From NCBI GenBank assembly GCA_039545335.1, contig BCIN01000008.1, positions 300,363-320,362 on the forward strand: a DNA stretch of 20,000 bases. The letters run 5' to 3'. The notes beneath the pieces are model-generated. The model ran no database searches. It saw only the letters and a list, made by a program, of their open reading frames with translations, and was not told where the DNA came from. A program made the translations under genes and the position numbers. The stretch comes from Kondoa subrosea (Eukaryota). This document shows, piece after piece, positions 2,456-18,057 of this stretch. Each line of letters begins with the position of its first letter. Position 1 is the stretch's first letter.

Positions 2456-3109
2456 TTAGATGAAGCCAATCTATCAGCCATCGTCAGTGTCTACTTCTTC
2501 AATCACAAGTATAAACCAACCTTGTTAGCGACATCCAAAGCATCAACGTCAGGTAGCAGTCTAATGAATGCCTTTTTCTTTCCATCCGGGCTGTACATTC
2601 GCTTGTGATCAGGCTTGTCAAGCTTTACGAGAACAAGGCCGCTCACCGAATGAGAGTGTTGATTGAAGCAGCCTCAACATCGTACAACTTCTTGATGGCC
2701 TGCTTGATGTGCCTCTTGTTTGCTTTGATGTCGACAAGGAAGACGAGGGTGTTGTTGTCTTCGATCTTCTTCATTGCGCTTTCAGTGCAAAGAGGTTGGA
2801 CAATAGTCCTGTAACATAACCAGCACATTGAGCTCTCGTACTCTTGAATTGCCTGCAAATTTCATTTTTGACAAACCTGTACTGGTCCATTCTTGGTGCA
2901 TGAGGAATGCTCTTTCGTGGGTACTTGGGTTTACGAGCAAGGCGAAGAGTAGTAGGGCGGTGGAAAGTGGTGCTGGTGCGAACCTTTCGCGAAGTGTGAG
3001 ATCCTGTTCCCTTCAAAGCGGCCTTCTTTGCTGCTTTCGCTTTGGCATCTTGTGGTTTAGTAGCAGAGCTCTTGCCCTTGGAGCTCTTGGTATCAGCCTT
3101 GCTGGACAT
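2456..3109 (-). CDS. RPL25: 60S ribosomal protein L25 / L23a (uL23), 159 aa, 4 exons
   Basis: Exons 3109-2877, 2808-2647, 2590-2521, 2470-2456. Family motifs: [74 protein letters not shown]. Confidence 0.97.
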
Positions 3110-3679
3110 ATTAGGGAGTTCGAAGAGTTTCTCGACGAGGGGAAATTGCTCTTTGAAATCCGTCGGATTTGCCGGGACTTGATGCCGGTCGCTCTGTAGG
3201 AGAGTGGAAGAGGCTCTTCCCTTCCTGCCTCTCTCTCCATCTCTCTTTAAGAGGGTCTTCGCTGGATCTGGCTCGCACACAGAGCGCACTCTAGAGTTCT
3301 CAATTTTCTTCACTTTATGCTACAGTATAGGCTTTTGTCAATTCCGCAAGCAGCGCTGCTCTATATGTTTGCTTCTCTCCTCCTTCTCATCCTTGTCTTC
3401 ATCATGTCACCGCCCTCGAGCGAAAAGCTTTACTTTGTTTTCTGTCACCTACCTTGTAAAAGCGCGTCGCATGAGCTGTCAAATGCGTTACGTAGTTCTC
3501 ACTCGTCATCACTCTGTATCATACGGCGGATCTTGCTCAAGATGCTTCTCACATGTTAACCTTACTAATTGTGGTTATGTTATTTTTGGTCACTGATCAG
3601 TGATTAATAAACAATCACGCCTATCCGCTCAAGCATGCTTTGCCCCTGTACAACCACTTCTTCCAGTAGTGAAATCAAT

Positions 3680-4495: not shown

Positions 4496-4638
4496 ACGTC
4501 AAGCCCAGCGATAGTAAAGAAAGTGTTATACTTTGTACCGACTGTTTATAAGCGTTAGATAATCGATAATTGATAAGCCAGAGACATTTCCGACTTGACG
4601 CTTTCGAAGTTCATATATCCCTTCATCTGTTAGTAACG

Positions 4639-5415
4639 ATGGCCTTTGACAAGTCTGCGAATCAGTTGCTGGAAGCAATCTTTGGCTGTATAGAAGACGA
4701 CATTATACCCAAGACTAGAGAACGCGTCAAGGCCGGGTGCAAAGTGTTTGGAGCGGCAATCTTGCGAAAGAGTGATCTAGGACTAGTACGTTGTCATGAA
4801 CGATGCAAAGATCAAAAGATCATCTCTACACAGGTGATTGCAGAAACCAACAATGAAATCACTCAGCCGCTCTTTCACGGAGAGGTCCATTGCATCTTCT
4901 GCTATAACAACTTACCTAATCGACCCTCTCCAAAAGACTGCATCTTCGTAACAACGCATGAACCATGCAGCCTTTGTCTATCTGCAATCACTTGGTCTGG
5001 CTTTGATAACTTTGTTTACCTGTTCTCGTCAGTGATATCCTCATTCTCGATTCGACTTGAGCTGATATCGTAGTCCAGATACGAAGACACTAGAGATGCA
5101 TTTCAAATACCATACGATATTCAAGTCAGTCCGTCGCCAGGTACTTAAAGGCAATCACTGACGAGGCAGCAGATACTCGAAGCGGTATACAAAGTGCAAG
5201 GGAAAGAAGAGAAGGAAGACTTCGATCAACGACTCTTGTACAATAGAGAGAACGCTTTCTTCAAAGCGTTGAGCGTAGCGGATTTGATAGCGAAGCTGGA
5301 ACCTAAAGAGCAAGAACGTTTTCAAAGGAGGAAAGCAAAGCTGAATGAAGAGTATGCAAAGTTGTCCGAAGTGTACCAGAGCAGCAAAGGAAATGCTGGC
5401 ATTCCACTAGCGTGA
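4639..5415 (+). CDS. Zn-dependent cytidine-deaminase-fold nucleoside deaminase, 209 aa, 4 exons; substrate unknown
   Basis: Exons 4639-4785, 4834-5027, 5079-5124, 5173-5415 (630 nt). The last acceptor is a CAGCAG NAGNAG. Catalytic motifs HGE and THEPCSLC (HxE...PCxxC), with an upstream FGAAIL. Confidence 0.9.
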
Positions 5416-7713: not shown

Positions 7714-9087
7714 ATGTCACAGTTTCGAGCTGGAAAGACTAATGAAGCAGAAAGCAGAGCCCCTCTGACTAAGATCCAAACGACTTCGCAATCGAAAACT
7801 ACTACTTTCAAGCCTACTCGGCCTGCCTCCAATGCTGTCCCTTCCTCTTCCACTTCTCGTTCTGTTCCATCTTCCCAATCTTCTGTCGCATCTTCTTCTC
7901 AGCCTGTTGCGGCTCCTTCGTTAGATTTCGGTCGGTATGACGGAGGCTTGGAAAGGGATGAGGCAGCTGCTAGAGGTGATGTGATTGAAGGTGAAGCGGC
8001 AACGGAATTGGCATTGGATTCTAGCTCTTCAAAGTGTGTCACTTCACTGCTCTTGTCTTTACCGAACTAATTGTACAAAAAGATTGACTCGCCCAACGAA
8101 ACCTTGGAAATTTTCAGATTTCGAACTAGGTCGTGCTCTAGGCAAAGGCAAATTCGGCAGAGTTTATATGGTCCGAACAAAACATACAGAACCTCAATAC
8201 ATTCTCGCTCTGAAGTGCTTATACAAATCAGAACTCGTCAAGGATAAAGTAGAGAAACAGACACGAAGGGAAATCGAAATCCAATCGAATCTTCGACATC
8301 CTCATATCCTTAGACTGCATGGTTATTTTCATGACGAAAAGCGGATCTTCTTGATGCTTGAGTTTGCTGGAAAGGGAGAACTGTATAAGCAATTGTCGAA
8401 ACATGGCAAGTTCAGCGAAAAGAGATCGTCAAGGGTCAGTGCAGGTCATAAGCTCTATCAGTCTATCGCTGATTCAAAGGTTACCGCATCTGACAGTACA
8501 TCGCGCAAATGGCCGACGCCTTGCAATATTTGCATAAGAAACATGTCATTCATCGAGACATCAAACCTGAGAACATTCTGCTTGGCCTGAATGGTGATTT
8601 GAAGATAGGCGACTTCGGTTGGTCAGTGCATGCTCCGTCAGATCGGTGAGCTATTTCCCATCTGATCGAGGTCGAGCTGAAAACATTGATAGTCGATCAA
8701 CACTTTGCGGAACTCTCGATTACCTACCTCCGGAAATGGTCGAGGGCAAACATCATACAAGAGAAGTCGATCTTTGGGCACTAGGAGTATTGACGTATGA
8801 ATTCTTGGTCGGCGCTCCACCTTTTGAAGAGCTCAGTGGGGCGCAAGCGACCTACAAGAGGATAGCGAAAGTCGATTTGAAGATCCCCGAGACTGTTTCG
8901 GCTGAAGCAAAGGATTTGATAAAGAGTGTGAGTTGAATATCATACGGATAAGACGTAGGCTGATGTGATGCAACAGCTCTTGCGACATGATCCTGAAGAT
9001 CGCTTGCCGATAGCAGATGTATTGAGGCATCCTTGGATACTAAAGTATAAGAAGACGAAAGACTCGCAACAGCTGGAAGCAATCTAG
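7714..9087 (+). CDS. IPL1: Aurora serine/threonine kinase (Ipl1/Ark1-like), 388 aa, 5 exons
   Basis: Exons 7714-8033, 8083-8434, 8497-8645, 8693-8927, 8977-9087 (1167 nt). Motifs [62 protein letters not shown]. Confidence 0.96.
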
Positions 9088-9366: not shown

Positions 9367-11281
9367 ATGAGCGCCGTCAAAGAAGCCACTGCGGCCTCCA
9401 AGAAGCAGTCTGATGAAGTGTTCAAGATTCTCAGAGCTCAAAAGGCCAATAAGGTTAGTCTGCCACGCTTGAAGCATGCTGTCCATGCTGAATTATCGAA
9501 TTCGCCAGATGTGCTTTGATTGTAAGTCTACATGCATCTAACCATTTGCGGGCCTAGCTAAAAGGATACTTACAGGCCAAGCAAAGAATCCTACTTGGTC
9601 CAGTGTTACTTTTGGCGTTTATATCTGGTGAGCGCGACAGATAGTCAAAGTCTTGCTCGAGCTAAGCTTTCCTCTAGCTTGGACTGCTCAAGCAATCACC
9701 GCAATTATGGTGTCCATGTATCCTTTGTCAGGTCGACCAATCTCGATCTATGGCAGTACCAACAACTGCGCACGATGAAAGTCGGCGGCAACGCTTCTTT
9801 TAGCGAATTCTTAGCTCGTCATCCTGGCAGCGCTAGTAGTGGTAACGTCAAAGACAAATATACTTCAGCAACAGCTACCAAATACAAGGAGGAACTAGGC
9901 AAAAGAGCAGCTGCTGATTTAGCGCAATTTGGTATCGGTCACGTTGTTTTAGCGGACAGCGGTGTAGATATCGGCGGAGCTCTGGTAGTGGACGACAAGG
10001 ATGGAAGCAAGGATGATTTCTTCGAATCTTGGGATAAGCCAGCAGTACCAAAACCACTCAAAAACGATGCGACTGCTCCTCCTCCTCAAATCTCTCTTAC
10101 GCCAAATTCTTCTCGTCCTGCAACACCCAGAGCTTCTTCACCTGCTCCTCCTACTCCTACTGAAGCAACTAAACCAGTTGCACCTACAGCTCCCCGAACG
10201 GTCTCTTCTTCCGCTTTACGAAACGCTACACCAGCTACCGCAGGTGGTCGAGCAAAACTTGGTTCTCGTCTCAACTCAGCATCCAGTATCACAGGCTCAA
10301 CTACTTCCACAAACGCAGTAGGAGGTTCTAAATCGAAACTAGGAGCAAAGAAAGCAAACGTGACTATTAATTTCGAAGAAGCAGAACGAAAAGCTAAAGA
10401 AGAAGAAGAAAGGATCAAGAAGTTAGGATATGATTCGATCAGAGAAGCAGAGGAAGCTAGCAAGAAACAAAAAGAAGCTCAGAATGCTGCTATGGCTCAA
10501 GCGGCTAGAGATAATGCTGCTGCTTCTGCTGCTGGAAAACATCAGAGAAAGACTAGCGATAATGAACGATTGGGGATGGGCATGGGACGATTAGGGTTTG
10601 GTCAGACTATGGGTGTTAGTGGAGAAGAAAGCGCGAGGTTGGCTGCTCAAGCCAAGAAAGCTGCGGATAGAAAAGCTGCTGGATATGATGATGGTACGTC
10701 AAGACCGCTCACATGCGATGAGGATCGCTCATCAGCACCGACTGTTTCTCGCACAGATGCGCCTGCCGATATTCCTACTTATGCAAGAGAGAAGTTTTCA
10801 GCTCAGAAGGGCATATCGTCGGACCAATACTTTGGTCGCAACTCCTATGATCCCGAAGCTGCTCGAAACGCTCAATCTCGTTTAGCGCAATTCGCAGGAG
10901 CTACATCGATCTCTTCTAATCAAGTTAGTTATTCTATAGAAAGTTGCATTTTGTGCTGAGCCTCTTTTGCAGTACCATGGCATCAATGAAGATGAAGCCG
11001 ATTTGGAAGAGTCTATATTGAACGGAGATTCACTAAGTAGTCTAGAACTTGGAGCTAGACAATTGGCGAAGACAGCAATGCAAAGCGCTGGATATGAAGA
11101 TATCAACCAGTTGAAGGATGCTGTAAGAGATGGAGCACTCAAAGTGAGTATACTTGTCCACATAACTATTATCAGCGCTGATCTTGTTCATTTATCAGCT
11201 GGGCGATTTCTTGCAGCGAGTAAGTCTGAAACTGTTTATGCCAGGAATTTGCTAATCTCTGCGCGATTGTAGTATGCATAG
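9367..11281 (+). CDS. GLO3: ADP-ribosylation factor GTPase-activating protein, Glo3/ArfGAP2-3 type, 511 aa, 8 exons
   Basis: Exons 9367-9453, 9509-9521, 9576-9627, 9678-10693, 10757-10923, 10973-11143, 11199-11219, 11273-11281 (1536 nt). Zinc finger CFDC-x16-CLDC followed by HRNYGVHVSFVRSTNLD. C-terminal Glo3 motif KGISSDQYFG...ATSISSNQY. Confidence 0.93.
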
Positions 11282-11486
11282 AGTGTTGCAGATATAGGAT
11301 GATAGAGGAACATATTGCATATCGTATCTCGTTTCAGTGACAGCACGTTCCGAAAATCTTTACAAGCTTGTTCTGCATACGCGAGGTTTCTTTCACTAAA
11401 CTTTAAGAAAATCTGCCTTGTCGCTCTCTTTGGCTTTCTGTATTTGGAAAGAAGAGGGATGAGCCTGTTCTGGCCTTTGGGTGTGC

Positions 11487-12473
11487 ATGGAAGTCGAGCA
11501 GACGCGCACGAGTGAATCAGATGAGAATCGAAGACAACTGGATTCAGCCAAAGAACAGATCGCTCTGGCGGCTGCGGGCTCCCACACAGCTGCACACACA
11601 GTCGTTGTGCCCAACACAAACAATGCAAGCACAACTTCAGCTGGAGGCAGCAATAGAAGACCATTCATTGTTCCAACAATTATACATACAGATGGCATCA
11701 AAGAAGTACCTCGACGCTTCGAACAGTGTGATATAGAAGAATTGGTTGTACTCATAGGTGAATCCAAGTATCCATCGTTGGTTCGGCTCTTAAAGCTAAA
11801 TCTGTTCGTGAAAGCTGGCATGCTAGACAGACTTATCAAGCACAACGATCAAATTCCACTCACTCAAACTTCTCTCACTCGCTTTCATTCACGCGCACCA
11901 CCTGGCATTTCAGTGCATGATTATCTTCTTCGCATCACTCGTTATACAAATGTCGAAGCATGCTGTCTCTTGATTCTCCTACACTATATCGATAAGATCA
12001 CTGAACGACTAGCGGCCTTTACCATCTCAAGTTTAACAGTACATCGGTTTCTGATTGCGGGAGTCGCTTGTGGAAGTAAAGCGTTAAGCGATAGTTTTTG
12101 CACCAATGGAAGATATGCAAAAGTAGGAGGTGTATCCTTAGCGGAAGTCAATCTATTAGAAAAGGAGTTCTTGGCTGCTATAGATTGGAGATTGACAGTA
12201 AGCTTTCTTTTATCCCTCCTTCTCAAAGTAACACCGCTGACTTATGCATTGATTTAGACAAGTGGAACACTTCTTGCCCAGTATTATACATCACTCGTCC
12301 AATCTAATCCGGCCTTTCGACTAGCAGAAGTCGAGGTCACGCAGCCACCAAATTCATCAGGAATCGATCCAGACACATTATCAACTGCAGGAACTTTGGC
12401 AAACGGTCACACAGAAGGAAAAGAGGATGGCAGGCAGGAAAAAAGAGAAACAGACAAAGAGGGTTGGGAATAA
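11487..12473 (+). CDS. Pho80/Pcl-family (Preg-like) cyclin, 289 aa, 3 exons
   Basis: Exons 11487-11757, 11815-12197, 12258-12473 (870 nt). Cyclin box motifs LTRFHSRAPPGISVHDYLLRI, SLTVHRFLIA, KALSDSFCTNGRYAKVGGVSLAEVNLLEKEFL. Confidence 0.9.
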
Positions 12474-12694: not shown

Positions 12695-15600
12695 TCAATA
12701 AATGGGTAGCGGTGTAGGAGTGAAGCCAACAGGTATAACGTAGTGCTTCTCAGGTGCTGGAGGCTTGGTACTGTTCCGTTGGTTGAAGGGGATGACTAGC
12801 GCAACAAAATTAGCCGAGCGAACACCAACAGTAGTAACAGCTGCGACGAACTAGATACCGTTACATTAAAGCCTGGAGTTCCGTTATCGCTTGTTCGCTC
12901 TGGGTGGGACGCGTTGAATGCCAGCGGTTGGAAGCATGTCATGCCATAGCAATTGCCAACGATACTTGAATTCGCACCAAAAGGAACGCTAAGGGTGACG
13001 TTGTGAGAAGAAGCTGCGATTAGCCAATCCTTCATCACGGCAGGTGTAGGGTTGCCATAGAGTGAAATCAGATATGCTTTCATGCCGGCAACTACAGGAG
13101 TAGCCACTGATAGACAGTAAAGTCAGTTCAGTTTATTCCGAGCATTGGCAAAGAGAAGACGTACTGCTGGTTCCGGACAATTCAGCGCCAATGTCTGGAC
13201 CACCAATCCAATCGGAGAAGATACCAGATCCAGGAGCCCAGATATCGACAGAGCCACCCCAATTCGAAAAGGGACTTGAGTCATCTTTCTGAGTTATTGA
13301 TCCGACAGTAGTAACTTCAGCGACTCGACCAGGCGAATAAAGTGAAGCATCATCGGCGTTATTGCCAGCAGCGATCGTACTTTCGGTAGAAGACCGTGAG
13401 CATCATCAATATATAGTCATGGAAAGTGAGGAGACATACACGTGAATGCCTTTTTTGGTCAAAGCTCTACAGGCAGCGTCCAGTCCAGAATTGGGCGGTC
13501 CAGAGAAAGACAAGGAGACGACTGAAGGTTTTTTAGTCTTCCTTGCTACCGTTGCGACACTGTCAAACGTAACTTCAGCAGAGGCCAGTGCGCAAGTACC
13601 GAATACCCACTAATTCAGTCCTTTGACAATGTCAGCGCTTGATCCTCCGCCGTCATCGCCAAAGACTTTGATACCGAGGATTCTTGCTTTCTTAGCGACA
13701 CCATACTTTGTTCCAGCTGCCACACCAGCACAGAAAGTCCCATGACCGTTTCCGTCTTTTAGCTAATGGTAGGTATTTAGAAATCTGCCGAAGGCTCAAA
13801 GAATATGATGTCCTACTGCATAACCACCAAAGGCCTTTAAAAACTTCACTCTGCCACCAAAATCTTGGTGACCTGTGTAGATTCCAGTATCGCTACAGCC
13901 AGGAATATCAGCAAACGGATTCAAGAAAGAGATACAGAGAACACACAGCAAAAAGATATCAACACCTGCACCGGCTGTTCCATTGTAGTAGTAATTCGGG
14001 GTACTCTTGTTCGTGACAGTGACATTTGACGAAGCGCGGATCAGGTGCCATGGAGCTGCTTTTTGGGTCAGGATGGGCTGCACTGCACCAGCAATGAACC
14101 CAAGAGAATCAGCGCTGATGCTCTCGACTTCTGCTTTGGCAGTGACAGCATCGAGAATGACACCACGGAGAATTGCCTGAATCTTGCGTCAAGTAACGTA
14201 GAAACTTGTTTCAAAAGGGAGACTTACAGTGTAGATACCGAAACCAGGATAGACATCAACAGGTCCAGAACCACTTCCACCGTCGGTTGTTCCAGCCGGA
14301 CCATCATATGCATCGTGCGGGACGTAAGCTGTGGGAACAGGTGGTGGTAGATCTGGTGCAAAGGGATCAGCGGCAGTCGGGTCATAGCCAGGGGATCCGG
14401 GTCCAGTATAAGGTGTGCCACTGTAGCAAGAAGTCAGGATCAGCGTATAATAGCGCAAACGGGACAACCAACTCTGCGTTGATCTTCGAAGGAGTTCCGT
14501 CAGGATTCACTGGACCTGGAACACACTATCAGCTCCGTAATGTCTTCTCAGCGAAGTGACCAACCTGGATAGGGTGTGCCTAGCAGGGTTATGGATTAGT
14601 TTGATGTCTAGCAAAGCAGATAAATTCGTACCATCGGGTAATGTGGGCACAGGCTGAAAAACGAGTAATCAGCACAACCGCTTTACTAGCTGAAGAGGTG
14701 AGACATACTGGAACATAGGGCGTGCCGCTGTTTCATAATCAGCCGAGTGCCGGGTAAGATACTCAGAGACACCTACTCGTAGTTGAGCTTTGAAGGTGTT
14801 CCACTGTTGCTTAAAGGTCAGCACTTATACAGATGAGGATGAAAGGAGGACAACGAACTCCTCGTTTGTCGGTCCAGAGTACGTAGTTCCCTGTTGAAAG
14901 CCAGTTCAGTCTCCAGAAATTACTGGATGCAAGCAAGACCGACATCTGGATTGAGGAAAGGGACCGGAACATAGGGCGAGCCACTGCAATATGACTCAGC
15001 TTAAAAGTGAAAACATTGTATTGATCGGCTTACTCTGCGTTGACTGTACTCCAAGTACCACTGTTCATGAAAAGGTCAGCAATCTGGTGTTTTGGCATCA
15101 GACGAAGCTGCGTACTCTGCGTTCAAAGGACCTGCAAAGGTTGTGTTAGCTACTGTTCTGAGCACACGAGGAAGTTAGAGCTTGCCTGTGTAGGTACTTC
15201 CCTAAATATAAATCAGAGCGTCAGCTTTCTGAGTATAGGTAGATGGAGAGGTTGCTTACATCTCTGTTCGTCTTTGGGATAGGCACAAATGGAGTTCCGC
15301 TAGAGAGAATCTTAGCAACAACTAGCGGGATCGCAATAGAATACCTACTCAGGATAGGTGGCAGAAGGGTAACCATCTGCAGTGAGAGGACCGCTGTATA
15401 CCGAACCATCTCCGTTACGGTATATGCCATCTGAAAGCGATATATTAGATTCCCGGTCAAATCGCTAGTACGCAAGGCAAACTGACCAACACCCATACCA
15501 GGACCATATACTACTGGTGCAGGTGGAATGGAAGATGCTATAGTTATTTGCTTTATTCAGCGAGAGGTTTGATACTGCATGAGCGGAGAGCAACTCACAG

Positions 15601-18057
15601 CTCCCATCTGTAGTCGTGCTGCCATCTGCTGGCGTGCTACCATCTGCTGTCCCACTTCCGGAGTCAGTCGTAGAATCAGAAGCTGTAGTGCTTCCATCAT
15701 CTGTTGTTGAACCAGAAGCCGATGTGCTACCAGAAGCTGGAACATCTGAACAGAAGAATCAGCACCTACTCTGCAAGAAATCAAAGCAACTTGCAGCCTG
15801 GATAGTAGTAAGGTGTTCCATCGCTGAGAAAATATCAGCGATTTGCTTCAATATATTTTAGAGACGGACTCACGGGTTGAGAATAGCGATAGAACCATCA
15901 GGATTCACCGGACCTTCACAGGAGGAATATAGAATCAGTATCGGTTAATGATCTGCATAAGAATCGACTTACCAGTGTAAGGGGTACCATCCGCGTTGTA
16001 AGCTGGAGGTGGCACATATGTTGTTCCGCTGCAACGATACTTCAGATACAAAGAAGATATCAATTGAGATATCGCTCACTCATCGTTGATCTTGGACGGG
16101 GATCCCTGTATTCATTGAGCGTGTCAGATGCGAGGAAGGAGATTTTTTTTGGGCCGGAAACGTACATCTGCATTCAACGGGCCTGGAGGACGGGAAAGAC
16201 CAGTTCAGCTACTTATTTCTTCATCAAGTCAACGCTACATACCAGCATATGTAGTTCCCTGAAGGAAAAAGAAATATCAGTAACGCAATATAGTTATTAC
16301 AAAGATAACGAACATCAGGATTCAGTGCGACTGGTGGCGTATAGGGTGATCCACTGTGCTTAGGGATCAGAATAGGAGGTCGCATTCGATCGGGAAGAGA
16401 GCACTGACTCAGCATTGACCAATGAGGGCGTTCCGTCTGGGTTGACAGGTCCTGCGAGAGCAGTTCAGCTTGTGGTATACAGCAGAAGCAAGGCACAAGA
16501 CTGACCTCCATACAAAGTGCCGTCTCTGTTGAGCGCTGGAGTTGGCACATATGGTGTTCCGCTGCAACGATACTTCAGATTGAAAGAGATATCAAGTGAG
16601 ATATCGCTCACTCGTCGTTGATCTTGGACGGTGATCCCTAGAGTCATGAAGCGTGTCAGATGTGAGGAAGGAGAATTTTCGGCGGACACGTACATCTGCA
16701 TTCACTGGGCCTGGAAGACGGGAAAGACCAGTTCAGCTACTTATTCTTCCACCAAGTCAACGCTACATACCGGCATACGTAGTTCCCTGAAGGAGAAAGA
16801 AATATCAGTAACGTAATATAGTTGTGACGAAGGTAACGAACATCAGGGTTCAGTGCAACTGGGGGCGTATAGGGTGATCCACTGTGCTTAGTGATCAGAA
16901 TAGGAGGTCACAATCAATTCAAAAGCAAGCACTCACTCAGCATTGACCAATGAGGGCGTTCCGTCTTCGTTGACAGGTCCTGCGAGAGCAATTCAGCTCG
17001 TAGCATACAGCAGAAGCAAGGCACAAGACTGACCTCCATACAAACTTCCATCTCTGTTGTACGCTGGAGGACTAAAGCAGATGTAAGTACAAAGAATATA
17101 GGTCAGAAAGTCAAACAAGACTTACGGAACATATGGATCGCCAGAGGCATCCACTTTGGACATTGTACCATCAGGGTTCTATGTATTGAGCGCATGTGTC
17201 AGACGGTGTCCATCAGAAAGGACTATTGACTGACAACTGGACCAGTGTAAGGCGTTCCTGTTGACACAGATTAGTGCAGTCAAATAAAACTTGATAGGAA
17301 GATACGGACCATCTCTGTTCATTGGCACCGGTCTGTAAAGAGGAATATCAGCGTCCGTTAATTGTTACCAACCAAGTTCACAAACGGAATGTATAACGAG
17401 CCGCTGAACAGGAAGTCAGCGACAGCCTAGAGCAACATCAGTGCCACGTACTCTGCGTTGTAAGCTGATGGAGTGCCATCGGGATTAAGAGGACCTGTAT
17501 GAATGTGTGAGCGTTGCTCAACAAGATATGCCAGCGAATGATGAACCTTGATACGCAGAACCATCTGGATTCGTGAACGGAACTGCAAGAAAGGTTTAAG
17601 TGACTGTCGCCAGAGAATGGCTGAAGAACCCACTTGGAGCTGGGTAAGGGCTTGGAGGTCCTCCATTGGCAGCAATAGCATCTACAGAGCTTCTCAGCAC
17701 TTTGATGCCGGGTCTTGTGCCAAAAGACTGACCGTATAGCCATGCCAAATGCTTGTCCATATCAGAACCTCCAGTTAAGACGACTAAAAACAAATCAGGT
17801 TGACCAGGTCCACCGACTGCACGAGTTGAAAGATGATGATGGCTTGCAGTTGTTGAATTGGCATAGTATTCTTGAGATTTATACTCTTGACTGAAAGTTG
17901 GCGCAGCCACTACAGGTTCCGAGTAGCTGGCCAGCAGCACAATGACAAAGAGTGGTCCCAAGAGCTGGTTGAAGACACATTGCAAGACCACAAAGAGAGC
18001 AGTTCGACTGCACTTTGGCGCGAGCATTTGAGGGCCGGCCCTCTTGTAGTAGTCCAT
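12695..18057 (-). CDS. Proteinase K-family subtilase (peptidase S8A) with a repeat-interrupted I9-like propeptide; about 996 aa, 45 exons
   Basis: Exons: 18057-17733, 17681-17634, 17582-17547, 17494-17452, 17403-17386, 17332-17310, 17257-17235, 17178-17126, 17071-17034, 16979-16937, 16881-16842, 16786-16771, 16710-16694, 16637-16612, 16561-16506, 16451-16409, 16353-16314, 16258-16243, 16182-16166, 16105-16080, 16028-15973, 15913-15874, 15823-15795, 15745-15599, 15537-15487, 15430-15349, 15299-15260, 15201-15186, 15131-15116, 15060-15034, 14983-14944, 14890-14859, 14803-14777, 14727-14709, 14653-14632, 14579-14565, 14515-14473, 14420-14228, 14176-13947, 13892-13817, 13762-13611, 13559-13440, 13379-13165, 13106-12852, 12795-12695. 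Total 2991 nt with all phases consistent. Catalytic triad LDTG (Asp 13891-13889), DGNGHGTFCAG (His 13744-13742), SGTSMATP (Ser 13168-13166), plus oxyanion AAGN. Mature start resembles TQKAAPWHLIR. The frame of the last exon and the start codon are less certain. Confidence 0.85.
14390..17571 (-). repeat. Protein-level tandem repeat: 11 copies (7+4) of a 33-aa unit NxDG(S/T)xYxGP(V/L)-NxDGTPSxx-NxDG(S/T)PYxPPxxx
   Basis: Visible only after splicing, e.g. NRDGSLYGGPV NEDGTPSLV NADGSPYTPPVAL and NPDGTTYSGPT NEDGTPSKL NYDGTPYVPPVPT. The 11+9+13 aa spacing holds in all copies. Confidence 0.88.
16011..17070. repeat. Direct tandem DNA duplication, two copies of about 530 bp (16011-16543 and 16544-17070), covering six exons and six introns
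   Basis: Near-identical segments offset by 528-533 bp, e.g. ccgctgcaacgatacttcagat (~16026 and ~16559), cgggaaagaccagttcagctacttatt (~16191 and ~16719) and cagcagaagcaaggcacaagactgacctccatacaaa (~16480 and ~17008). Confidence 0.95.

Follow-up and report, generated by a model that had tools for sequence, protein, structure and literature searches.

The window, a 20,000-nucleotide stretch of Kondoa subrosea DNA, contains on its reverse strand a predicted protease gene in which 36 consecutive, mostly very small exons (exons 2-37) encode tandem copies of a 33-residue repeat. The layout of this array is real and extreme, but it appears to have arisen through DNA duplication and not to be a splicing device for variable proteins. 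The explanation that, taken as a whole, we regard as probably correct is that the gene encodes a secreted proteinase-K-type subtilisin (S8) pre-pro-enzyme, that the array was built by DNA duplication in a loop of its propeptide, and that the array introns are constitutively removed. The array would have grown by tandem duplication of exon-plus-intron modules, from a sub-repeat to the 33-residue unit and then to a 66-residue double unit of 528 bp, equivalent intron phases recurring by descent. The splicing machinery would recognise each short intron as a unit (intron definition), which on this proposal is why exons of 15-27 nt would be workable, and repeat number would change in the DNA and not through splicing.

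The gene model (Table 1) was obtained by a dynamic-programming pass and then built from coordinates, independently of those of the original prediction. Its predicted coding sequence comprises 2976 nt (991 codons plus a stop) and is stop-free through the 45 exons. The two models agree on a 36-exon array at 17681-14473, on the position and size of its smallest exon, on the phases at its borders, and on catalytic exons of 76-255 nt, which are the sizes of exons 40-45. The original count of 1324 coding nt with 17 exons of 30 nt or less shifted slightly, to 1309 nt and 16 exons, or to 1321 nt and 17 exons with the alternative GC-AG form of intron 23.

Table 1. Predicted features of the protease gene (positions in the window)
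Feature	Positions	Strand	Description
Whole predicted gene	12695..18057	-	45 exons, 44 introns of 48-64 nt; coordinate-built model
Exon 1	17733..18057	-	325 nt, ends in phase 1; N-terminal hydrophobic segment and first I9 strand-helix
Intron 1	17682..17732	-	51 nt; retention keeps the frame and adds no stop
Sub-array 1	15791..17681	-	exons 2-23; about seven and a half 33-residue NxDG units
Copy A	16543..17069	-	six exons and six introns, 66 codons
Copy B	16010..16541	-	second copy of the 528-bp tandem duplication
Intron 23	15727..15790	-	64 nt, ambiguous; weak GTTGCT donor; GC-AG alternative 15797-15746
Exon 24 (linker)	15599..15726	-	128 nt, Ser/Thr/Asp/Gly-rich; composition like orthologue inserts
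Sub-array 2	14473..15537	-	exons 25-37; about four 33-residue units
Intron 28	15132..15185	-	54 nt; sole GC-AG intron in the model
Exon 36 (smallest)	14565..14579	-	15 nt
Exon 38	14228..14420	-	193 nt, starts in phase 2; last degenerate unit, Pro-rich linker, beginning of second propeptide half
Exon 39	13947..14176	-	230 nt; I9 C-terminal half and start of S8 domain; aligns to P0003, P0004 and P0014
Exons 40-45	12695..13892	-	76, 152, 120, 215, 255 and 101 nt; proteinase-K-type catalytic domain, Asp/His/Ser motifs

Exons of the array are predicted to measure 15-128 nt (median 34.5 nt) and its introns 48-64 nt, typically about 54 nt; intron density is 27.5 per kb of coding sequence in the array and 5.2 per kb elsewhere in the gene. 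The size limit of 30 nt or less given for micro-exons in a passage of PMC7821500, applied to internal exons, takes in 16 of the 36 predicted exons, or 17 with the alternative intron 23. Together the exons encode a 33-residue unit of three sub-repeats (13, 11 and 9 residues), each ending in NxD followed by G, and this register is exact in both sub-arrays. Tandem Repeats Finder reports one array only in the region, of 18-nt period, at 15600-15649 within exon 24, and in single-exon Pfam searches with a limit of E=10 neither exon 26 (26 residues) nor exon 38 (64 residues) matched a family. Array phases are mixed (0, 1 and 2), and introns occupy at least 10 distinct positions within the 33-codon unit, some of them one base apart (5.67/6.0/6.33; 10.67/11.0). 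The phase-2 intron originally noted in the third NxD of nine repeats is confirmed: of the 12 third sub-repeats, nine have it in the final Asp codon (introns 4, 10, 14, 16, 20, 26, 30, 33 and 37). Neighbouring members of this set stand 99 or 198 coding nt apart within the sub-arrays and 390 nt apart across the linker. The accompanying 99-nt arithmetic is confirmed as well.

Strict fungal-type introns (GTNNGY, CTRAY and YAG within 45-65 nt) number 26 on the gene strand of 14473-17681 and none on the opposite strand, against a mean of 1.5 and a maximum of 7 in 200 shuffles; the intron signals of the array region are far above chance. Base composition separates array exons from array introns (GC 51.9% vs 43.8%; thymine 22% vs 33.5%) much as in the rest of the gene (GC 50.0% vs 43.8%; thymine 26% vs 36%). 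Splice signals in the array match those elsewhere in the gene in strength, with G at +5 in 35 of 37 array introns and 7 of 7 others, and a CTRAN branch motif in 35 of 37 and 5 of 7, respectively. The 17 residues that retention of intron 1 would add are absent from all five Sporidiobolales orthologues compared on this point. Orthologues, which lack the array, support the flanks of the model (exons 1-2 and 38-39) and not the 35 predicted exons between.

Duplication is directly visible in sub-array 1, where copies A and B have an identity of 91.4% over their exons and 89.4% over their introns, with all five indels (5/5) in introns. A repeat-family search also recovers this 528-bp duplication (family D1), and a 478-nt DNA contig, whose sample is possibly the source of the window DNA itself, spans its junction. 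For 12 introns the recurrence of phases follows directly from this event, in which six exons were duplicated along with six introns, and the only strongly similar intron pairs, six of 946, all derive from it. Counting against the overall explanation, exon and intron identity between the copies are almost the same, and divergence is higher at synonymous sites (0.22) than in introns (about 0.11), a difference from a small sample for which we have no explanation. Older units have introns at equivalent positions without clear sequence similarity outside the six recent pairs, and their descent by duplication is therefore argued from position and phase alone. The spread over at least 10 positions per unit implies some gain, loss or one-base shifts besides inheritance, and the array may be a record of unusually fast intron turnover.

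The enzyme that surrounds the array is identified by several lines of evidence. Among six single exons compared with Pfam, exons 41 and 43 pass the Peptidase_S8 cut-off of 21.8 bits (33.8 and 33.7 bits), exon 44 matches below it (16.5 bits) and exons 1, 38 and 39 do not match. The catalytic Asp, His and Ser motifs of the predicted protein lie in exons 40, 41 and 43 and, linked through BLASTP, fall in invariant or nearly invariant alignment columns (D329, H359 and S514 in the numbering of orthologue P0029). The AlphaFold model of P0029 has the proteinase K fold, with Foldseek TM scores of 0.93-0.95 to 2prk, 1ic6 and 6ruk. The best relatives come from the Sporidiobolales (Pucciniomycotina), with nine orthologues at E=1e-134 or better; these carry the names S8 family peptidase or hypothetical protein.

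The position of the array within the propeptide is read from its two flanks. Exon 1 matches orthologue P0015 (BLASTP, E=3e-7) and the N-terminal half of the I9 domain of P0014 (E=0.001), which Pfam places at residues 40-110. Model residues 600-917 align to residues 76-390 of the same protein, 600-634 covering the C-terminal half of I9. Pfam Inhibitor_I9 itself was not detected on any single exon tested, nor in P0011, P0015 or P0008. In P0029, the AlphaFold model is confident for a strand at 60-66 and a helix at 72-85; residues 93-226 are disordered, and a strand-strand-helix-strand series (234-268) then precedes the S8 domain, an order that fits I9 with an insertion behind the first helix. At the place of the array, P0011 and P0015 carry a low-complexity insert of about 100-150 residues rich in Gly, Ser, Asp and Glu, while the N-terminal part is missing from P0008 and of a different kind in P0025; the NxDG array is absent from all four of these Sporidiobolales sequences. 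Judging from these alignments and models, the array appears to be an insertion of about 490 residues in the I9 propeptide, in the loop that leads from its first helix to its second strand. As part of the propeptide, the array would be removed by cleavage during maturation and be absent from the finished protease.

The introns could matter in themselves, as an expression throttle in which each is obligatory and any retention leads to a premature stop and RNA decay, tuning the amount of precursor. Retention of any of introns 2-37 (36/36) would break the frame or add a stop, and retention dominates alternative splicing events in other fungi, at 61% and 67.5% according to passages of PMC3925392 and PMC12230235; a passage of PMC5006051 describes it as a way in which Cryptococcus regulates its genes. 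Selection, however, acts on what the array encodes. Across nine complete units the mean pairwise difference at codon positions 1, 2 and 3 is 0.33, 0.24 and 0.61, and the duplicated 66-codon blocks differ by 10 synonymous and 8 non-synonymous changes (dN/dS 0.255, Fisher p 0.009); on codon-position divergence and a dN/dS of 0.26, the array reading frame is under selection. Such purifying selection on the repeats shows that the peptide itself matters, not the introns alone, and the orthologues manage without such an array, which leaves the throttle an unlikely explanation.

It is less likely still that the array is partly mis-modelled or decaying, with some micro-exons unused, or the gene silent or a recent pseudogene. 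Three predicted junctions are weak or unusual, namely the GT donors GTTCAT (intron 3) and GTTGCT (intron 23) and the GCAAGC of intron 28, near which a GT donor preserving both frame and repeat register was sought and none was found. No array-bearing protein emerged either, a search with the exon 38 protein returning no matches and none of the 99 fetched proteins having at least four NxDG motifs, but this absence from protein collections is weak evidence because unspliced open-frame callers cannot predict micro-exons. Against decay stand a frame intact over 45 exons with its catalytic Asp/His/Ser motifs present, a third-position excess and dN/dS that hold in frame, and the exact 13/11/9 register across both sub-arrays.

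The original prediction had instead seen in the array a possible means of varying repeat number. On that reading, micro-exon blocks between same-phase introns would be skipped in a regulated manner, the in-frame isoforms differing in how many 33-residue units they carry, much as schistosome micro-exon genes (MEGs) yield protein variants. The arithmetic stands: among donor/acceptor pairs of introns 1-37, 224 of 666 are in frame and 37 of these remove exact multiples of 99 nt, and the phase-2 intron recurs in the last codon of the unit as noted above, but the sequence gives no sign that these pairs are used. Symmetric exons amount to 8 of 36 (255 of 1309 nt), the 36, 18, 27, 27 and 15 nt exons named originally plus others of 48, 33 and 51 nt; the remaining 28 are asymmetric, and skipping any one of them therefore shifts the frame. 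Removal of a unit needs an excision of 258-1633 nt, whereas all 44 introns of the gene measure 48-64 nt, splice signals are strong and uniform, and inverted repeats of at least 16 nt able to loop out units were not found. In other fungi that have been studied exon skipping is rare, making up 3% of alternative events in a set of 23 species (PMC3925392) and 0.5% in the long-read data for Coprinopsis (a passage of PMC12230235). As the array lies in the propeptide, isoforms would leave the mature enzyme unchanged, and DNA duplication directly accounts for part of the phase recurrence. Low-level skipped isoforms may exist, but it is very improbable that whole units are skipped so that a single gene yields a ladder of propeptide lengths; if true, this would mean that several exons are skipped together under regulation in an organism that otherwise recognises its introns singly, and would amount to splicing-based tuning of the folding, inactivity or anchoring of a protease precursor.

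The array can be set beside several known systems. The Sporidiobolales orthologues, such as P0029 of Sporobolomyces koalae and P0011 of S. pararoseus, share 43-48% identity in the S8 domain, common motifs flanking the insert and an insert at the equivalent place in the propeptide, but that insert has no NxDG units (P0011, P0015). Members of the proteinase K family with an I9 propeptide (P0014; 2prk, 1ic6) are alike in the S8 match, in fold (TM 0.95, through the orthologue) and in propeptide halves that align; the ordinary I9 is contiguous over about 80 residues, whereas here it is split by about 490. In splicing, the constitutive micro-exons of Coprinopsis cinerea are similar, passages of PMC12230235 describing very short internal exons, short introns, omission that breaks the frame and near absence of skipping, with about 9% of gene models containing at least one internal exon no longer than 15 nt, so that micro-exons are common in this basidiomycete. 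Those passages describe neither a series of 36 small exons nor a connection with tandem repeats.

Schistosome MEGs, the loose analogy first drawn for this array, resemble it in their rows of very small exons, N-terminal hydrophobic segment and in-frame variants that are arithmetically possible. Passages of PMC4350168 describe MEGs as genes whose coding region lies mostly in very small symmetrical exons and variation by splicing as documented (DeMarco 2010, as cited there), and a passage of bioRxiv 10.1101/2023.06.21.545858 gives long introns, up to 5 kb. The likeness fails on both exon symmetry and intron length, since few of the array exons are symmetric and its introns are tiny, and the array is a regular tandem repeat inside an enzyme precursor. 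Repeat arrays of animal genes that arose by exon duplication, for example in collagen, have mostly symmetric exons and long introns recognised by exon definition. They share with the present array one or a few exons per repeat unit and recurring phases, and differ from it in that here the phases are mixed and the introns very short.

Within the propeptide of a subtilase, the array of 36 small exons codes for a lineage-specific tandem repeat that is under selection, and its layout is best explained by duplication at the DNA level together with constitutive splicing of short introns. The minus strand was read for splice signals and frame between 18300 and 12100, where stretches of coding sequence, once the short intervening GT...AG introns and their fungal branch motifs are removed, connect in a single long frame; the window is eukaryotic. 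The gene model was obtained by dynamic programming across all GT...AG intervals, after which junctions were set by coordinates and repeat register, giving a predicted gene from an ATG at 18057 to a stop at 12697-12695 with 45 exons, a coding sequence of 2976 nt and 44 predicted introns of 48-64 nt (mean 54). The model reproduces the layout in the original prediction, namely 36 exons within 17681-14473 (predicted boundaries), an exon 1 ending in phase 1 and an exon 38 starting in phase 2, a smallest exon of 15 nt (exon 36), and catalytic exons of 76-255 nt. The totals proposed there, 1324 coding nt and 17 exons of 30 nt or less, were approached rather than matched, the model having 1309 nt and 16 such exons; intron 23, the sole ambiguous junction, gives 1321 nt and 17 when read as a GC-AG intron at 15797-15746 in place of 15790-15727.

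Two of the 44 introns, intron 1 (17682-17732, 51 nt) and intron 39 (13893-13946, 54 nt), are the only ones both in frame and stop-free, and retention of either would yield a slightly longer protein rather than a broken one. If intron 1 were retained, the protein would gain 17 residues that all five orthologues in an N-terminal alignment lack, which supports the originally proposed start of exon 2 at 17681. Retention of any of introns 2-37 (36 of 36) breaks the frame, so that retention followed by RNA decay could throttle expression, a possible role suggested by general knowledge of fungi, which would be compatible with duplication and constitutive splicing as the source of the layout. An in-frame TAG at 13611-13609 was considered as a truncation of the catalytic domain and rejected, being removed by the 51-nt intron 13610-13560; the junction spliced across this intron agrees with the usual subtilase motif at that site, as in proteinase K. 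An ORF-based reading of 13560-13611 on the minus strand would wrongly give a truncated protease.

Predicted exons of the protease gene and positions of neighbouring genes in the window
Feature	Positions	Strand	Status or type
Exon 1	18057-17733	minus	predicted
Exon 2	17681-17634	minus	predicted
Exon 3	17582-17547	minus	predicted
Exon 4	17494-17452	minus	predicted
Exon 5	17403-17386	minus	predicted
Exon 6	17332-17310	minus	predicted
Exon 7	17257-17235	minus	predicted
Exon 8	17178-17126	minus	predicted
Exon 9	17071-17034	minus	predicted
Exon 10	16979-16937	minus	predicted
Exon 11	16881-16842	minus	predicted
Exon 12	16786-16771	minus	predicted
Exon 13	16710-16694	minus	predicted
Exon 14	16637-16612	minus	predicted
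Exon 15	16561-16506	minus	predicted
Exon 16	16451-16409	minus	predicted
Exon 17	16353-16314	minus	predicted
Exon 18	16258-16243	minus	predicted
Exon 19	16182-16166	minus	predicted
Exon 20	16105-16080	minus	predicted
Exon 21	16028-15973	minus	predicted
Exon 22	15913-15874	minus	predicted
Exon 23	15823-15791	minus	predicted
Exon 24	15726-15599	minus	predicted
Exon 25	15537-15487	minus	predicted
Exon 26	15430-15349	minus	predicted
Exon 27	15299-15260	minus	predicted
Exon 28	15201-15186	minus	predicted
Exon 29	15131-15116	minus	predicted
Exon 30	15060-15034	minus	predicted
Exon 31	14983-14944	minus	predicted
Exon 32	14890-14859	minus	predicted
Exon 33	14803-14777	minus	predicted
Exon 34	14727-14709	minus	predicted
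Exon 35	14653-14632	minus	predicted
Exon 36	14579-14565	minus	predicted
Exon 37	14515-14473	minus	predicted
Exon 38	14420-14228	minus	predicted
Exon 39	14176-13947	minus	predicted
Exon 40	13892-13817	minus	predicted
Exon 41	13762-13611	minus	predicted
Exon 42	13559-13440	minus	predicted
Exon 43	13379-13165	minus	predicted
Exon 44	13106-12852	minus	predicted
Exon 45	12795-12695	minus	predicted
Neighbouring gene	2771-3319		ribosomal L23 N-terminal domain
Neighbouring gene	4570-5073		cytidine/dCMP deaminase
Neighbouring gene	7985-8936		protein kinase
Neighbouring gene	9562-10959		ArfGAP
Neighbouring gene	11463-12257		Pho80-type cyclin

The insertion consists of two arrays, at model residues of about 117-349 and 420-545, whose 33-residue unit combines sub-repeats of 13, 11 and 9 residues, each beginning with Gly and ending in NxD, in a register that is exact through both arrays; between them, exon 24 encodes a Ser/Thr/Asp/Gly linker similar to the inserts of orthologues. 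Single-exon pieces of the repeat matched no known repeat family, plus-strand ORFs inside the array had no Pfam match, and the 99-nt unit went unreported by Tandem Repeats Finder, to which it is invisible because introns interrupt it. A limited literature collection yielded no description of NxDG/NPDG repeats, of fungal micro-exon arrays in repeats or of subtilase propeptide insertions.

Among six exons submitted singly, Pfam Peptidase_S8 was found above the cut-off in exons 41 and 43 and below it in exon 44, the other three being without a match. Nine S8 proteins from Sporidiobolales (Sporobolomyces, Rhodosporidiobolus), retrieved with one of them, P0011, as the query, are the best relatives and share 43-48% identity with the model across the catalytic part; the AlphaFold model of the orthologue P0029, itself a predicted structure, fits proteinase K with a TM score of 0.95. 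Searches against longer proteins gave a single match, a fragment, for exon 43 at an overly strict threshold, and 244 candidates for exon 38, none at E <=0.1. A representative search gave 27 matches, from which P0002 and P0005 were left out; P0002, a predicted protein of 4941 residues with xylanase-inhibitor domains throughout, was rejected as an unrelated chance match. A single metagenome locus matching over only 11 residues was likewise judged unrelated.

The end of exon 1 aligns with the beginning of the I9 propeptide in P0014, an ordinary relative in which this propeptide is contiguous (Pfam I9 at residues 40-110), and P0014 residues 76-390 align with model residues 600-917, which together would place the 490 intervening residues in the loop after the first propeptide helix. 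The predicted structure of P0029, with a confident strand and helix at 60-85, a disordered stretch at 93-226 and a strand-strand-helix-strand at 234-268 before the catalytic domain, shows the same modelled arrangement, the insert following the first helix. Two orthologues with both flanks readable carry low-complexity inserts of 100-150 residues at that site, Gly/Ser/Glu/Asp-rich in P0011 and Gly/Ser/Asp/Thr-rich in P0015, and comparison of the orthologue sequences points to a probably fast-evolving insert region. The NxDG array was present in none of the four orthologue sequences read, and no protein with it was found in the collections searched. The orthologue P0017 has a Pro/Ala/Ser-rich stretch behind the common N-terminal flanking motif, and P0025 a different, Ala/Leu/Val/Pro-rich N-terminal region.

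The intron pattern of the array exceeds chance. When a strict fungal intron was defined as GTNNGY, a CTRAY lying 10-40 nt before the intron end, YAG and a length of 45-65 nt, 14473-17681 contained 26 donors of such introns on the gene strand and none on the opposite strand, while 200 shuffles of this stretch gave a mean of 1.5 and a maximum of 7 strict introns. Array exons are richer in GC than array introns (51.9% against 43.8%) and poorer in thymine (22% against 33.5%), a contrast that the gene also shows outside the array. At codon positions 1, 2 and 3, pairs of the nine complete 33-codon units differ by a mean of 0.33, 0.24 and 0.61, the pattern typical of a translated frame that purifying selection maintains, and the copies of the youngest duplication differ by 10 synonymous and 8 non-synonymous changes (dN/dS 0.255, Fisher p 0.009). 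The intact frame and this selection signal make it unlikely that the array is decaying or partly mis-modelled, as three weak junctions (introns 3, 23 and the GC-AG intron 28) might suggest. It is a real, extreme micro-exon array, within predicted boundaries, where each kb of coding sequence is interrupted by 27.5 introns, compared with 5.2 for the remainder of the gene. The neighbouring genes are of housekeeping types with much longer exons and include unbroken frames of 465 and 264 codons, so the density of tiny exons is local to the array. Scans for Rfam families and for tRNAs were both negative.

Six exons along with their six introns were copied by a tandem duplication of 528 bp (17069-16543 and 16541-16010), the copies being 91.4% identical in exons and 89.4% in introns, with all five indels intronic; among all 946 intron pairs, strong similarity is confined to the six of this duplication. 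A 478-nt DNA contig, from what is probably the window's source sample, spans the duplication junction, and DNA contigs from the two runs of that sample show no differences from the window and break within the duplicated region. Synonymous divergence of the copies (0.22) is about twice their intron divergence (0.11), in a small sample. The array would have grown stepwise by duplication of such exon-plus-intron modules, through which intron phases would recur by descent. As originally claimed, nine units carry a phase-2 intron in their third NxD; it splits the final Asp codon, and neighbouring members of this set are 99 or 198 coding nt apart inside each sub-array; in exons 30-33 of sub-array 2, one exon corresponds to one sub-repeat. 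Intron sequence common to the old units gave only weak scores, no higher than 14 where shuffles reached 11 at most. Module duplication alone cannot account for the whole layout: at least 10 intron positions fall inside the 33-codon unit, with two to four introns per unit and some positions one base apart (5.67, 6.0 and 6.33; 10.67 and 11.0), so introns were also gained, lost or shifted. The one-base-apart sets suggest that introns shifted, or were gained repeatedly, inside a single gene. Derivation of the introns from repeat coding sequence (intronisation) was rejected, since only 1 of 37 array introns resembled the array coding sequence more closely than shuffles did at p <=0.05.

The originally proposed mechanism, in which skipping varies repeat number through splicing, is sound in its arithmetic, as 37 donor/acceptor pairs would excise exact multiples of 99 nt, but is unsupported by the sequence and very improbable. 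Such excisions would span 258-1633 nt, far beyond any intron of the gene; 28 of the 36 array exons are asymmetric, array splice signals equal in quality those elsewhere in the gene, and no inverted repeats of >=16 nt offer RNA pairing elements. Because the array lies within the propeptide, the isoforms would leave the mature enzyme unaltered.

The gene, with 36 small exons in succession, is an extreme case of a habit known in basidiomycete genomes. It is a test case for annotation, a single missed 15-nt exon ruining the protease frame, and material for studies of splicing, in which short introns make chains of tiny exons possible, and of intron evolution, the paralogous units of one gene carrying differing introns. 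The I9 propeptide tolerates inserts of hundreds of residues in one loop, wholly different among related fungi. A new route to protein diversity is not indicated by present evidence. Exon skipping is rare in the fungi studied, making up 3% of alternative events in one study (PMC3925392) and 0.5% in another, based on long reads from a basidiomycete in which constitutive exons of tiny size occur commonly (PMC12230235). The suggested likeness to schistosome micro-exon genes fails on two defining features: symmetrical exons, which define those genes (PMC4350168), account here for 8 of 36 (48, 36, 18, 33, 51, 27, 27 and 15 nt, including all five sizes originally listed, 36, 18, 27, 27 and 15 nt), and schistosome introns are long (bioRxiv 2023.06.21.545858), whereas those of the Kondoa gene are 48-64 nt.
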